Assembly: GCA_945787715.1 (NCBI GenBank)
Contig: CALZJE010000003.1
Coordinates: 6,088 to 70,087, forward strand
From: an uncultured Ectothiorhodospiraceae bacterium
Lineage (GTDB): Bacteria > Pseudomonadota > Gammaproteobacteria > S012-40
Length of the DNA: 64,000 nt
Direction: 5' to 3'
The position numbers and the translations under genes are program-made. How positions within the stretch are numbered: position 1 is the first letter of the stretch; each line of letters opens with the position of its first letter. The notes beneath the pieces were generated by a model. The model did no database searches. It was not told the origin of the DNA and saw nothing but the letters and a program-made list of their open reading frames with translations. Positions 22,908 through 26,826 of this stretch are shown one piece after another.

Positions 22908-23627
22908 ATGCATGATTTAGATCAGACCCAACTCGATTATAGCCGTGCAGAGTTTGATGATGACGAGTTTGAGTTAGAAGGGGAGTTCGAAAATGATATG
23001 GCTGTGTCAGGTGCTGATGAATATGAGGATGAGGATGAGTTTGAAAGTGAATATGAGTTCGAATCCAACTTTGATGGAAACAGTCCTTTTAGTGAAGCAG
23101 AGGAAATGGAGCTTGCTGCGGAATTAATGGAAATTGCAGACGATGGGGAATTGGAATATTTTCTAGGTAGGCTGATTAAACGCGGCGCTCGACGGGTTGG
23201 TCGTAGGCTACGTAAACGTGTAGGTACACGGTTGAGAAAGGGGTTAAAAAGACTTGCTAAACGCGGTTTGAGATTCGCAGGTGGAGCTGTTGGTGGTGCG
23301 TTAGGTGGTCCTGTTGGAGCCGTGGTAGGACGAGCTGCGGGTCGTGGATTGGGAAAAGTGTTTGGACTTGAATTAGAAGGTATGAGTCTGGAAGACCAAG
23401 AGTTTGAAGCAGCGCGTCAATTTGTTCGGCTTGCAGGTGATGCTACCTCTACTGCAACAGCAATTCCCTCTTCTGTTAATGAAGAAGTTGTTGCTCACAA
23501 GGCGCTGAAAAGATCAGTGGTAAAATTTGCACCGGGACTCGCAGGTAAAACCAGACGCTCTGTTCGTGGAGAAAAATCTGGACGCTGGGTTCGTAAAGGT
23601 TCTAGCATCATTCTAATGGGTGTTTGA
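22908..23627 (+). CDS. Hypothetical protein with a strongly acidic N-terminal half and an Arg/Lys-rich amphipathic glycine-zipper C-terminal half
   Basis: Residues ~1-90 are extremely acidic (DEFELEGEFEND…EYEDEDEFESEYEFESNF). Then comes RLIKRGARRVGRRLRKRVGTRLRKGLKRLAKRGLRFAGGAVGGALGGPVGAVVGRAAGRGLG, cationic with a GxxxG zipper. No signal peptide. Confidence 0.6.
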   Translation: MHDLDQTQLDYSRAEFDDDEFELEGEFENDMAVSGADEYEDEDEFESEYEFESNFDGNSPFSEAEEMELAAELMEIADDGELEYFLGRLIKRGARRVGRRLRKRVGTRLRKGLKRLAKRGLRFAGGAVGGALGGPVGAVVGRAAGRGLGKVFGLELEGMSLEDQEFEAARQFVRLAGDATSTATAIPSSVNEEVVAHKALKRSVVKFAPGLAGKTRRSVRGEKSGRWVRKGSSIILMGV

Positions 23628-24946
23628 GTCCCATGACTACCCCGCTGGTACGACAAGTTCTGAGCAATGAGACTCAAGCACTGATGGCTCGTCTCAGAGG
23701 AATTAAGCCGTTTTCCTTACATGTGCCGATGGTTGCTGCCGCTGCTTTGCAAACTTCAGCTCAACAATTGATAGAGCAGCATATGCACAGGGTATTGTCG
23801 TCAGTCGCTCAGATGCTCGGAACATATGAAGACTGGTTAAATAGTGAGGCGGGGCGTCGAACCAAAGATGCCACTGCACAGCGACATCTAACACTGGTGA
23901 GATTGCGTTTCCATGCAGCATTGACGCAGTTTGATCTTTTTTCAGATGTACTTACTCAGCGTAGTGAACATGAGTTTGGTGTCTGGCTCGCTGGACTTGA
24001 TGCACTAGCAGTGGATGCATTAAAAATAGAAGGAAAATACTTCGAACTGCCAGGTGTCGCGTGTTATCTAGATCGAGGAATAGGTGCTGCTATTCGACGG
24101 GTACGTACACGCTTACCTGGCGGGCGTGAAAATCCTGTTGCTATAATTCGAGTTCCTCGTGAGCGGATGATTGGCTCAGGCATCGCTTCATCGTTGGTTC
24201 ATGAAGTCGGGCATCAGGGTGCTGCGTTGCTAAACCTTGTGGAATCATTACGAAAGGAATTGCAGAGAAAAATTCATTCTGACGGATCGCCGTGGCGTTT
24301 ATGGCAACAATGGATATCAGAAATCATTGCTGACTTTTGGTCTGTAGCGCAGATCGGTGTGGGTTCTACTTTGGGTTTAATGGGTGTTGTTAGCTTACCG
24401 CGTGCATTTGTATTTAGAATTAGTGAAGAGGATCCTCATCCTTCACCGTGGATACGAGTCATGTTGAGTGCATCGATTGGCCAAGCCCTTTATCCGGATT
24501 CTCAATGGCGTCGTCTTCGTGAAGTTTGGATGCGTCTTTATCCGCGCACAGGTATCGATCCGGAAAAGGAACAACTGTTTCAAGGTTTGGAAGCTACGAT
24601 ACAGGAGTTTGTTGAGTTATTAACTCAACATCGGCCACGAACACTAGAAGGGATATCATTGTTAGAAATTTTCCCTGTTTCAGATAGACAACCAGATCGG
24701 TTAAGAAACTTATATGGTCAATGGTCAGGGAGGTTTAACGCTTGGCGCACCTCGTCCCCGGCGTTAGCGTTTGCCGTTATCGGACAAGCACGCGCTGATG
24801 ATCGACTAAGTGTATCAGATGAATCGAATCTTATTAATAGACTATTAAACCATTGGGCATTCAATCGAAATGATTTAAATAATCAATGCGGATGTAGACC
24901 TAAGGCGAATGCATATTCAACTGCAGTTATATCTACTGCGTTATAA
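23624..24946 (+). CDS. Hypothetical protein with an HEXXH motif (possible zinc-metallopeptidase-like)
   Basis: 440 aa. The only recognisable motif is SSLVHEVGHQGAAL. Start overlaps the upstream stop (ATGA), implying translational coupling. Confidence 0.55.
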   Translation: MSPMTTPLVRQVLSNETQALMARLRGIKPFSLHVPMVAAAALQTSAQQLIEQHMHRVLSSVAQMLGTYEDWLNSEAGRRTKDATAQRHLTLVRLRFHAALTQFDLFSDVLTQRSEHEFGVWLAGLDALAVDALKIEGKYFELPGVACYLDRGIGAAIRRVRTRLPGGRENPVAIIRVPRERMIGSGIASSLVHEVGHQGAALLNLVESLRKELQRKIHSDGSPWRLWQQWISEIIADFWSVAQIGVGSTLGLMGVVSLPRAFVFRISEEDPHPSPWIRVMLSASIGQALYPDSQWRRLREVWMRLYPRTGIDPEKEQLFQGLEATIQEFVELLTQHRPRTLEGISLLEIFPVSDRQPDRLRNLYGQWSGRFNAWRTSSPALAFAVIGQARADDRLSVSDESNLINRLLNHWAFNRNDLNNQCGCRPKANAYSTAVISTAL

Positions 24947-24957
24947 GGAGTCTTGTA

Positions 24958-26826
24958 ATGAAACAAATAGATAATATATCGATTATACAATCTCACCATG
25001 CCGTAGTGCCGGACGGTGCAGTTTCTCTACGCTTATCAGAGAACTATGTAGATGTAACAAAGTACACATATATTTGGCGTACTCCTGAATCGTTGGGTGA
25101 GTTTAATTATATTGATCAACCCAATGTTATATGGACCGCTCCATTAAAAGCAGCAGGTGTGGTAGAAATAAGCGTAGAGATTATGCCTAAAAGCGGACAG
25201 AGTGGAGGTAAGAAACGCAATACACGTGCTTCATCGGAAAATTCCACGGCTGAATCTACACATCTCGAAAATATAGAGACAATAATCATCTCAACTACGG
25301 TGGAAGTTACGCCAAATGCTTTGCCTTTAGATGTAGTTGGTGCGATTGGAGAAGGTGTTAAGGCTATCAAAGAGGGTCTACCCGGTCAGGAAATACGTTT
25401 GGAGCGACAATTTCCTGCGCTTACGCCTCAAAAATCATTGTGGGCTATTATTCGCGACCGTACCAATGCAATTTCATTTAACAATTACAAAGCATTTATC
25501 GACTCGATTATGTGTGGCGGTGATACCTATCACAGCAAACAGATTCCCCATGAAGTTAAAGAATATGTCAATTTTGATCCGAGTAAATTGCACTACCGAG
25601 GTACCGAGTCGTATGAGGTTTTACGAAAAGCGACAGAAGCATTTCTGATGCATGAAATTGGTGCTTTACCCACTCCCGTAAATGAATCTGAAAAATTTCC
25701 CTTAGCAGACCCTGCTGAACAAAAACGGCGTTTACCACAACTCGCGGGTTCAAATGACGAAGAAGTTCAAATGGAAATGGAAAGTAATCGAACTGAATAT
25801 TTAAAAACATTGGAAGACGAAAGTCGGACCTTTCCTTATTTTAAACTTATCCGCGATCGTTTAAGTGAGATACCCCTTAAACCTCCTGGCTCATCAGGAG
25901 AAGGATGTTATGGATTATTGCGTTCGCGAATTTCACCACCAATTTTACTAGAATTAATCTGGTCTTATTGGCACGAAGAAGGAGGTTTGGTGCAAACAAT
26001 GAAAGCCATTAATATGCGCTTTCAGAACCGTTTATATAATCCACGTAAAAATGGGAGCGATCCGTTGGCTAATCTTAACTTGGATCCGTTACGTCCTATG
26101 AGCAATATTATTTGGGGATATATTCAAAATGAGCACGAGCATTTAACGTTATCAAGACGCGCTTATGAATACGATCATCATTATGGATTCAGTATCGCCG
26201 GAAAGGCAGTACCCAAACTCAACTCTGCCGATAGCCGTACTAAATTTTTAGAGGCGTTTCACAGTCTTCTTCATCGTGCCTCGGTGTTTTACAAAGAGCA
26301 ATCTGATACAACTAAAGTACCCGATGGTTATCCGTTGCTAAATGGATTGAAGGAATGTCATTTGTTGCTGGCTGAAGGTGCACATAACCAATTTGGTGAT
26401 TTACCCTGGACAGCGCGTATTGAAATGCTCATCGAGCAATGGATGTTAGCGCGGCCAGAAACACGGAATTTTTTGAACCGACGAGTGATGGTGCCTTACT
26501 CAGAAGAGTGGATGCCAGCGGTTGATCAAATGAAAGACTTGCAAGGTTGGTCAGGTGGTACCGTGCGTCATTTTCGAGATCTAGGAACGTTCGGTGAACA
26601 AATCTTGTTGTCAGTACGTTATGGAGATTGGAGTGAAAATTTTAATGAAGATGAAGCCAAAATCTGGGCTCAGTATTGGCGACAGGAGATTCAAGGTTAT
26701 ATCAATGCGTATCGTTCAGTAACGAGTGTAGACTTGGGATCGGATGCAGATCTGGCAAATGCTACGCTATCTCGTCAACGATCGACTGCACCTGCCGAGT
26801 TATTGAAACAGCAAGGTACTCGTTGA
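24958..26826 (+). CDS. Hypothetical protein (622 aa), no recognisable domain
   Basis: Long ORF in the operon, 12 nt after the previous stop. No signal peptide and no motifs I recognise. Confidence 0.55.
   Translation: MKQIDNISIIQSHHAVVPDGAVSLRLSENYVDVTKYTYIWRTPESLGEFNYIDQPNVIWTAPLKAAGVVEISVEIMPKSGQSGGKKRNTRASSENSTAESTHLENIETIIISTTVEVTPNALPLDVVGAIGEGVKAIKEGLPGQEIRLERQFPALTPQKSLWAIIRDRTNAISFNNYKAFIDSIMCGGDTYHSKQIPHEVKEYVNFDPSKLHYRGTESYEVLRKATEAFLMHEIGALPTPVNESEKFPLADPAEQKRRLPQLAGSNDEEVQMEMESNRTEYLKTLEDESRTFPYFKLIRDRLSEIPLKPPGSSGEGCYGLLRSRISPPILLELIWSYWHEEGGLVQTMKAINMRFQNRLYNPRKNGSDPLANLNLDPLRPMSNIIWGYIQNEHEHLTLSRRAYEYDHHYGFSIAGKAVPKLNSADSRTKFLEAFHSLLHRASVFYKEQSDTTKVPDGYPLLNGLKECHLLLAEGAHNQFGDLPWTARIEMLIEQWMLARPETRNFLNRRVMVPYSEEWMPAVDQMKDLQGWSGGTVRHFRDLGTFGEQILLSVRYGDWSENFNEDEAKIWAQYWRQEIQGYINAYRSVTSVDLGSDADLANATLSRQRSTAPAELLKQQGTR

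Follow-up and report, generated by a model that had tools for sequence, protein, structure and literature searches.

A sigma-54-associated gene cassette centred on a predicted zinc metallopeptidase and an uncharacterised partner protein, with a possible role in regulated envelope attack

Introduction

What role do two large proteins without assigned families play when they are encoded side by side and one of them carries an HExxH motif? The question is raised by a stretch of 64,000 nucleotides (nt) of DNA from an uncultured Ectothiorhodospiraceae bacterium (GenBank assembly GCA_945787715.1, contig CALZJE010000003.1, positions 6,088 to 70,087 of the forward strand). This whole stretch is referred to here as the window, and its coordinates are used throughout unless another locus is named. 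A first-pass annotation, made from the letters of the window alone, had singled out two plus-strand open reading frames (ORFs), here termed gene B and gene C, as its best candidates for new domains. Both ORFs are present, at 23624–24946 (440 residues from a TTG codon) and 24958–26826 (622 residues), and both are real genes: protein searches returned more than 5,400 homologous clusters at 90% identity for gene B and more than 4,400 for gene C. Their nomination holds up well, since neither gene B nor the core of gene C gave a significant match in sequence or fold libraries, and no confident homology to a housekeeping family was found for either. Beyond what that annotation had described, genes B and C are almost certainly the core of a conserved, six-gene, sigma-54-dependent cassette.

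Genes B and C in a conserved gene order

ORFs were called in 83 related loci and in the window and were clustered, and the result was checked by tblastn. Across 80 other genomes, gene C lies directly 3′ of gene B in 71 of 71 loci, and an A-type gene, in one or two tandem copies, is found at most 1.2 kb upstream of gene B in 71 of 75. A gene for a sigma-54 enhancer-binding protein (EBP) follows within 10 kb downstream in 46 of 53 loci, at a median distance of 6.8 kb and in convergent orientation in 41 of them.

In the window, five plus-strand genes form one run, which is closed by a convergent EBP gene. The run starts with gene A (22908–23627, 239 residues), a candidate substrate or pro-toxin, and continues with gene B and with gene C, the product of which combines an immunoglobulin (Ig)-like N-terminus with an all-α core. 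These are followed by a gene for an Amidase_2-type N-acetylmuramoyl-L-alanine amidase (26864–27694; Pfam E 4e-12, with a match to an endolysin PHROG), a putative cargo or effector, and by a gene for a trypsin-like serine protease (27731–28645; Pfam Trypsin and Trypsin_2), which may be cargo or a second processing enzyme. The EBP gene on the minus strand (28736–30085) encodes an AAA+ domain with a GAFTGA motif and a Fis-type helix-turn-helix (HTH).

Genes A and B are only 5 nt apart (TGA of gene A at 23625–23627, ATG at 23633). The gap between genes B and C is 11 nt, and the TAA of gene B is embedded in a Shine-Dalgarno sequence, TAAGGAG, 7 nt before the gene C ATG; a further AGGAGG is located between the end of gene C and the amidase ATG. 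Given this tight spacing, the operon membership claimed for genes B and C stands. The ATGA overlap between the start of gene B and the upstream stop, described in the same annotation, is absent: only the mechanical start at TTG 23624 overlaps, as TTGA, and the ATGA at 23633–23636 is part of gene B's own start. Gene B most likely begins at ATG 23633 (23633–24946, 437 residues), because the N-termini of its homologues align there and the identical database protein P0001 has 437 residues. Simple hydropathy analysis revealed no signal-like N-terminus and no segment of transmembrane (TM) grade in any of the five plus-strand products of the window, and the maximal KD19 values of 1.48 for gene B and 1.27 for gene C agree with the earlier description of both as free of signal peptides and TM helices.

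Apparent A–B or B–C fusions were considered and rejected. ORFs of 613–845 residues in high-GC loci are explained by out-of-frame extension of the upstream ORF over gene A, and protein P0432 looks like a frameshifted read-through, so that no Rosetta-stone claim is made.

Gene B, a predicted zinc metallopeptidase

The only motif noticed in gene B at first was VHEVGHQ. It is present, with HEVGH at 24200–24214 on the plus strand, and offers H190 and H194 as candidate zinc ligands and E191 as candidate catalytic residue (numbered from the ATG) on a helix predicted for residues 183–199. It is not the sole motif: an ExxxD sequence, E230-I-I-A-D234 (24320–24334, plus strand), is also invariant and lies on a helix predicted for residues 228–241, with E230 placed 36 residues after H194. 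E230 is a candidate for the third zinc ligand that the first-pass annotation had suggested looking for downstream of HExxH, and D234 for the His-orienting Asp. SLVHEVGHQ, E230 and D234 within WISEIxADFWS, and H269 within DPHP are invariant in 40 close homologues. Among 17 divergent members of the family (28–51% identity), the sole invariant residues are R110, H190, G193, H194, E230, D234, G242, H269, P270 and R275, and E191 is near-invariant. Thus, the HExxH motif, the conservation of which had been left for checking, is kept as an invariant or near-invariant feature in 40 close and 18 divergent homologues.

Thermolysin-type gluzincins have as their signature an HExxH motif and, on a later helix, a Glu within an ExxxD motif, the corresponding residues of thermolysin being H142, E143, H146, E166 and D170. 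The AlphaFold2 model of gene B (predicted local distance difference test (pLDDT) 86.5, predicted template modelling score 0.85) is mainly helical. It places strands 141–147 and 169–175 ahead of the HExxH helix and the ExxxD motif on the successive helix, and adds an N-terminal helical domain of about 130 residues and a C-terminal one of about 150 residues, both of no recognised type. Because HExxH and ExxxD are conserved and their helices are placed in this way in the model, gene B very probably encodes a zinc metallopeptidase that belongs to an uncharacterised family of gluzincin-like enzymes. Assignment to the metzincins was rejected, as HEVGHQGAALL has neither a Gly at +3 nor a His or Asp at +6 after the second His.

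No match to gene B was found in Pfam or NCBIfam at E ≤ 1, nor in PADLOC (PADLOC-DB v2) or PHROGs, and a profile built from 40 sequences found none among PDB sequences at E ≤ 10. The best matches of the protein search are all about 53–59% identical, are all labelled "hypothetical" and come from Chloroflexi, Methylomirabilis, Nitrosomonas, Accumulibacter and Pelagibius. An exhaustive profile search of 1.84 billion representatives returned 1,145 matches, and each of the best 150 is either a strong member of the family or a fragment (E < 1e-53). The family shares with the gluzincins of MEROPS clan MA(E), such as M4 thermolysin and the minimal M48 and M56 peptidases, the HExxH helix, the Glu in ExxxD (E166/D170 of thermolysin), a further conserved His downstream and β-strands before the active-site helix. 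It differs from them in the absence of any Pfam, NCBIfam, PDB-sequence or Foldseek match, in its own N- and C-terminal helical domains and in the His–Glu spacing of 36. Filed conservatively, gene B is predicted to represent an uncharacterised family of a known peptidase type, the gluzincins.

Gene C, the constant partner of gene B

Gene C had been described as motif-less. This is correct insofar as no Pfam or NCBIfam match was obtained up to E ≤ 1, nothing was found in PADLOC or PHROGs, and a profile search against PDB sequences gave no match. It is not correct for residues ~9–117, which are predicted to form an Ig-like β-sandwich and are the confident part of an AlphaFold2 model with an overall pLDDT of 66.9. 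The only Foldseek match, a weak one, is limited to this domain, and the core has none. The N-terminus is hypervariable among homologues, in which β-sandwich units are absent, single or several in number, and some homologues bear CarboxypepD_reg- or SpaA-like domains. The conserved part is an all-helical core of about 470 residues (~145–622) with many invariant charged and aromatic residues and the motifs ELIWSYWHEEG, RFQN, DPLRP, RRAYEYDHHYG, GAHNQFGDLP and MVPY. A loose likeness to lytic transglycosylases (EEGMLVQ, AYEYD) and one to lipoxygenases (GAHNQFGD) found no support in any search and were dropped.

Gene A, a charge-partitioned protein

The A-type proteins are 210–260 residues long and conserved from end to end. 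An invariant MHD(L/I)D N-terminus (MHDLD.T in the window) is followed by a low-complexity acidic tract, a conserved helix EEMELAAELLxVxDxxELExFLG, a polybasic amphipathic stretch and a glycine zipper; an acidic helix, FGLELEG(L/M)SxEDQEFExAR, and the C-terminus GRW(V/I)RRGxxIxLxGV complete the protein. In the window protein, residues 1–85 carry a net charge of −34 in the acidic tract, and residues 86–128, the polybasic amphipathic helix, a net charge of +18 with a helical hydrophobic moment (muH) of 0.99. Ten of the 25 residues of the glycine zipper (129–153) are glycine. Judged by its composition, gene A is like a charge-masked antimicrobial or pore-forming peptide in its physico-chemistry. 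It has no match in Pfam or NCBIfam up to E ≤ 1 or in PADLOC, and only weak matches in PHROGs (E ≥ 0.013).

The cationic core is bordered on both sides by Gly-Leu junctions, FLG|L and FG|LELEG. Thermolysin-like enzymes prefer a hydrophobic residue at P1′, and by analogy these junctions would suit cleavage by an enzyme of that kind.

Cargo and accessory genes

The middle of the cassette is variable, and its genes encode Amidase_2, VanY, Peptidase_M15_4, M23, PG_binding_1, OmpA-like and trypsin-like domains. Trypsin-like genes recur at the same position in other cassettes. The window amidase, which is signal-less, is 52–64% identical to the C-terminal domain of nine cassette proteins of 357–850 residues. 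Two cargo proteins, from loci L009 and L027, carry a complete A-like module within the same polypeptide, and the one from L009 bears PG_binding_1 in addition; by inspection, neither has an obvious signal peptide, hydropathy having been computed for the window proteins only. A hidden Markov model of gene A detects no A-like module in the window amidase or in the trypsin-like protease, and their link to gene A runs solely via longer homologues elsewhere.

Further enzymes accompany the core in many loci. A protein of about 370 residues, with a weak Aminotran_1_2 match, is encoded directly after gene C in 43 loci; this putative pyridoxal phosphate (PLP) enzyme resembles α-oxoamine synthases by eye, with a DDTQALG motif and a candidate lysine in SLAKG. 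An Amidohydro_2 protein of about 278 residues is encoded just before the activator in 39 loci, and some cassettes include an M20 or M23 peptidase. The cassettes of the window and of Pelagibius represent a minimal form without the PLP enzyme and without the amidohydrolase. Matches of window proteins in PADLOC are generic, of the trypsin-like protein to the LmuA and RT-Protease models and of the EBP AAA+ domain to RtcR-type models.

Sigma-54 control

A sigma-54-type promoter, TGGCATTCATTCTGC (GG-N10-GC), lies at 22837–22851 on the plus strand, 57 nt upstream of the gene A ATG. As a single match with two mismatches, TGGCATTCATTCTGC is by itself not above chance in the window. Across loci, a TGGCAC-N5-TTGC element with at most two mismatches precedes the first A gene by no more than 260 nt in 38 of 48 loci, many of them with no more than one mismatch or a perfect element, versus 212 of 1680 random windows (12.6%).

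The spacer of about 600 nt between ntrC and gene A (22300–22907) contains further elements. An imperfect 30-nt inverted repeat (22609–22671, 70% complementary) is located ~170–230 nt upstream of the −24/−12 element and, from its position only, is a candidate enhancer (upstream activating sequence) for the cassette activator. A 26-nt direct repeat ending in ATATGAAAAG occurs at 22486 and 22599, and a ATCAAACC...TTGCA element occurs twice, each copy pairing with sequence just downstream of the −24/−12 promoter. The repeats could be activator-binding sites.

The window EBP matches Sigma54_activat in Pfam (E 3e-56) and has an intact GAFTGA motif and an HTH_8 domain; its AAA+ and HTH parts score best against RtcR- and PspF-type models. 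In its N-terminal ~125 residues, no Pfam sensor domain, no CARF domain and no receiver was detected. A degenerate receiver was rejected, as hhalign against the receiver of the window NtrC gave a probability of 0.3% and Pfam no match. No cognate kinase is encoded nearby.

The cassette of Nocardiopsis sp. YSL2 (locus L084) has the order B, rpoN, A, C, Amidase_2, activator. The rpoN gene between B and A (L084 8532–9845) is complete and encodes 437 residues with Sigma54_CBD and Sigma54_DBD, and the A protein, of 401 residues, consists of two A-like modules. Actinobacteria are generally held to lack sigma-54. Because the cassette brings its own rpoN into such a phylum, the Nocardiopsis gene provides strong circumstantial evidence, from gene content, that sigma-54 gating is integral to the cassette.

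Distribution and mobility

A scan of species genomes detected gene B in at least 558 genomes from at least 11 phyla: Pseudomonadota (alpha, beta and gamma), Chloroflexota, Planctomycetota including anammox bacteria, Acidobacteriota, Nitrospirota, Methylomirabilota, Verrucomicrobiota, Calditrichota, Myxococcota, Desulfobacterota and Deinococcota. Look-ups based on gene A add Actinomycetota and Bacteroidota, giving at least 13 phyla. This patchy spread, at ~50–58% identity across phyla, indicates that the cassette is horizontally mobile, as judged from sequence comparison, and argues for horizontal transfer rather than a housekeeping function.

In the window, the cassette occupies ~22.3–30.1 kb, between glnA-ntrB-ntrC and trmL-gpsA-secB-rhodanese-gpmI. 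Its GC content is 41–43%, versus 35–39% in the flanks; this shift and the interrupted housekeeping stretch are what an inserted island may be expected to show. Neither an integrase gene nor a tRNA gene was found near the cassette, and there is no tRNA gene in the whole window. In all other genomes examined, different genes flank the cassette, and adjacency to ntrBC is not conserved. Gene B was found on only six plasmid records, mostly megaplasmids or chromids, and an origin as a defence, phage or plasmid element was not supported by PADLOC, PHROGs, phage genomes or plasmids.

Distant B-like paralogues occur in other settings. On replicon PPGU19_p1 of Paraburkholderia sp. PGU19 (locus L087, 3376–10561), a six-gene cluster surrounds a distant B-like zincin (hhalign 98.8%), and none of the six proteins has a Pfam match. 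The two proteins encoded upstream of the B-like gene contain GELHE and GEWE(D/S)ESE acidic repeats and, after these, an amphipathic segment with a glycine zipper and a tail rich in Arg. This is an independent hint of a connection between A-type and B-type proteins, although the rest of the locus contains nothing recognisable. The 652-residue protein beside this B-like gene was compared with gene C and is not related to it. On the conjugative plasmid pBq66S1MBa of Bradyrhizobium quebecense (locus L086, 162–9884), a B-like zincin of 473 residues (hhalign 97%) has as neighbours an S8 peptidase, a patatin-like phospholipase, a DUF2252 protein, a PLD-like protein and two CHAT-domain proteins. This neighbourhood looks like an effector or defence island, a typical setting of conflict systems.

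Three observations concern other parts of the window. Just outside the cassette, by trmL, an ORF at 31102–32304 (minus strand) encodes 400 residues with a weak VWA match and no NCBIfam family. A 975-residue protein with four DUF349 repeats (57664–60591, minus strand) coincides with the strongest AT-skew excursion (−0.29, 58001–60000). A CDF cation transporter gene (16140–17303, plus strand) has MamB and MamM as its best specific NCBIfam matches (221 and 193 bits), below their 350-bit cut-offs.

A tentative mechanism and its rivals

The reading proposed here is that of a sigma-54-gated, protease-activated cassette for envelope attack or lysis. When the activator fires, the operon would yield protein A, peptidoglycan hydrolases without export signals, and proteins B and C. 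The acidic segments of A would flank its cationic amphipathic helix and glycine zipper and neutralise their charge. B, with C as its obligate partner, would cut A-type modules at the edges of the cationic core that have a hydrophobic P1′ residue (FLG|L, FG|LELEG) and so free a membrane-active, cationic glycine-zipper peptide. Through the breached membrane, the signal-less wall hydrolases would then reach the peptidoglycan. The outcome may be regulated self-lysis (altruistic, as abortive infection or for release of contents) or the release by lysis of toxins against neighbours; the window shows no obvious immunity gene, which favours self-lysis, and the polymorphic cargo and the hypervariable Ig-like domain of C favour antagonism. 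The reality of the genes, the conserved active site, the synteny, the sigma-54 control elements, the range of cargo domains and the taxonomic distribution are observed. The proteolysis of A, its action on membranes, what C does and what purpose the cassette serves are all inferred, and the whole mechanism is put forward tentatively, as somewhat less likely to be right in full than to fail at one of its steps.

Several observations weigh against this mechanism. Zinc binding and proteolysis by B are predicted from its residues, and the AlphaFold2 model of B has no significant Foldseek neighbour in PDB or BFVD. No match assigns a role to C, and the segments with its most conserved core motifs (residues 328–396 and 474–514) are modelled at pLDDT below 50, which may reflect a shallow alignment or segments that fold only within a complex. 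Gene A has no hydrophobic TM segment (maximal KD19 1.36), and its glycine zipper is interrupted by Arg. The PLP enzyme and the Amidohydro_2 protein of most cassettes are not explained by lysis. Neighbour killing in particular is disfavoured, as the window shows no evident immunity gene between its cargo genes and the EBP gene, immunity genes in other loci not having been systematically searched; there are no secretion genes. Finally, PADLOC-DB v2 has no match for A, B, C or the amidase, and the cassette, traced by gene B, was not found in 50,697 phage genomes.

Unlikely, and the best of the alternatives, is a pathway for a ribosomally synthesised and post-translationally modified peptide (RiPP) or a similar peptide natural product, with A as precursor or scaffold, B as leader or maturation peptidase and C as modifying enzyme, assisted by the PLP, amidohydrolase and M20 proteins. 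Such a pathway would fit the one or two tandem copies of A that immediately precede a protease and an uncharacterised conserved protein, and likewise the α-oxoamine-synthase-like gene after C in 43 loci, the Amidohydro_2 gene near the end in 39, the M20 peptidases of some loci and the enzyme-like abundance of invariant His, Glu, Arg, Cys and Tyr residues in C. However, A is conserved over its whole 210–260 residues, including both termini, unlike a leader and core peptide, and A-like modules are embedded in large peptidoglycan hydrolases. Neither B nor C nor any neighbour belongs to a known RiPP enzyme class, no transporter or immunity gene is present, and the window and Pelagibius cassettes do without the PLP and amidohydrolase genes.

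B could also be a regulatory protease of the ImmA/IrrE kind that, with C as sensor or adaptor, cleaves an inhibitor, possibly A, and thereby controls the activator or the cargo. Such a signalling role would supply an input for an activator whose N-terminal ~125 residues contain no sensor domain and which has no kinase; B-like paralogues do occur in conflict-type neighbourhoods with CHAT proteases, and the hypervariable Ig-like domain of C could be a recognition module. Yet B and C are encoded downstream of the sigma-54 promoter and therefore cannot give the first input, and A, promoter-proximal, often duplicated and similar to antimicrobial peptides, would be an odd choice for a mere inhibitor; A-like modules are also fused to hydrolases. 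We regard this role as distinctly improbable.

A housekeeping function in wall turnover or nitrogen scavenging, in which an NtrC-linked operon recycles peptidoglycan or peptides and B is an ordinary cytoplasmic peptidase, is very unlikely. It draws on the position of the window cassette directly after glnA-ntrB-ntrC, on the membership of AmpD, a cytoplasmic recycling enzyme, in Amidase_2, and on the M20, amidohydrolase and aminotransferase-like genes of many cassettes. Nevertheless, the link to ntrBC is not kept, the flanks being different in all lineages examined, the cassette has its own activator and sits in an island of higher GC, and its polymorphic cargo with PG_binding_1, OmpA-like, M23 and VanY domains is typical of enzymes that act on the sacculus; the patchy distribution across phyla, already discussed, points the same way.

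Least credible of all is a structural role, in which A, B and C build a proteinaceous particle or compartment carrying the hydrolases and the HExxH of B is non-catalytic: B has no fold match to known proteases, C has Ig-like domains as do many surface proteins of phages and particles, and export signals are lacking as in particles released by lysis, but the two His, the Glu and the Asp of the zincin signature, together with a further His, are strictly invariant even in homologues of only 28% identity (with E191 near-invariant), which fits catalysis rather than scaffolding, genes of a capsid, sheath, tube or encapsulin type are absent, and PHROGs gave nothing for B and C.

Set against these alternatives, the lysis or killing mechanism would make the cassette an unrecognised system, a sigma-54/EBP-gated mobile module in which B and C arm masked peptides and swappable hydrolases. 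The probability of this is judged to be a little short of even.

Relation to known systems

The proposed mechanism combines features of several known systems. Phage holin–endolysin cassettes likewise pair a signal-less muramidase or amidase, here an amidase with matches to endolysin PHROGs, with a small membrane-targeting protein, the role proposed for A, and in both cases expression would be tightly timed and the producer's own wall would be the target. In contrast to holins, A has no hydrophobic TM segment, so that any holin-like action of A is hypothetical, which weighs against the mechanism as do the points given above. The cassette also has no phage context and is under sigma-54/EBP control, and phage cassettes have no counterpart of the metalloprotease or of protein C.

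Bacterial gasdermins with their proteases and prepro-antimicrobial peptides with anionic propieces follow the same logic of a membrane segment masked in cis beside a protease, and the −34/+18 charge partition of A mirrors that of precursors with an anionic propiece and a cationic peptide. There is, however, no relationship in sequence or predicted fold, the protease here is a predicted zincin rather than a caspase-, subtilisin- or trypsin-like enzyme, and cleavage of A is proposed only. With polymorphic toxins, colicins and pyocins the cassette shares a conserved module with swappable domains (amidase, VanY, M15, M23), a patchy horizontal spread and the lack of export signals, and with the bacteriocins CdzC/CdzD a glycine zipper, which is borne by A. 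Unlike these systems, it has no identified immunity genes and no secretion or lysis gene of a known type, its targets are in the cell wall exclusively and not nucleic acids, and it is linked to sigma-54, not to SOS. A dedicated sigma-54 activator beside a single target operon is known from RtcR-RtcBA and PspF-psp, but the sensor region of the window EBP is unrelated to theirs and the regulated genes share nothing with the rtc or psp operons.

The cassette is therefore filed as a variant of known logics, namely protease-activated membrane attack, holin–endolysin-like lysis and EBP-gated stress operons. There is nevertheless a substantial chance that it deserves the name of a new kind of system. 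Full-text literature, searched also with literal motif strings and excluding subscription literature, contained no description of the two families or the cassette.

Biological significance

Families B and C, which count thousands of members and occur in at least 13 phyla, have neither a curated family nor a solved relative. They always travel as a pair, accompanied by a dedicated sigma-54 switch and by cargo that degrades the cell wall. Their hosts include ammonia and nitrite oxidisers, anammox bacteria, methanotrophs, polyphosphate accumulators, rhizobia and soil Burkholderiales. The Nocardiopsis copy with its rpoN offers a natural test case for the movement of a sigma-54 regulon between phyla. 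Should B prove to be an ordinary peptidase, it would still represent a new family of gluzincins, one that has a clear signature at the active site and a candidate substrate at hand. If the proposed mechanism is true, B and C would define two new families within a cassette so portable that it takes its own sigma-54 along into Actinobacteria, and new bacteriolytic enzymes and cationic peptides could be drawn from it. It would then constitute a new route to regulated bacterial lysis or killing, with a bearing on the ecology of biofilms and granules in wastewater and soil.

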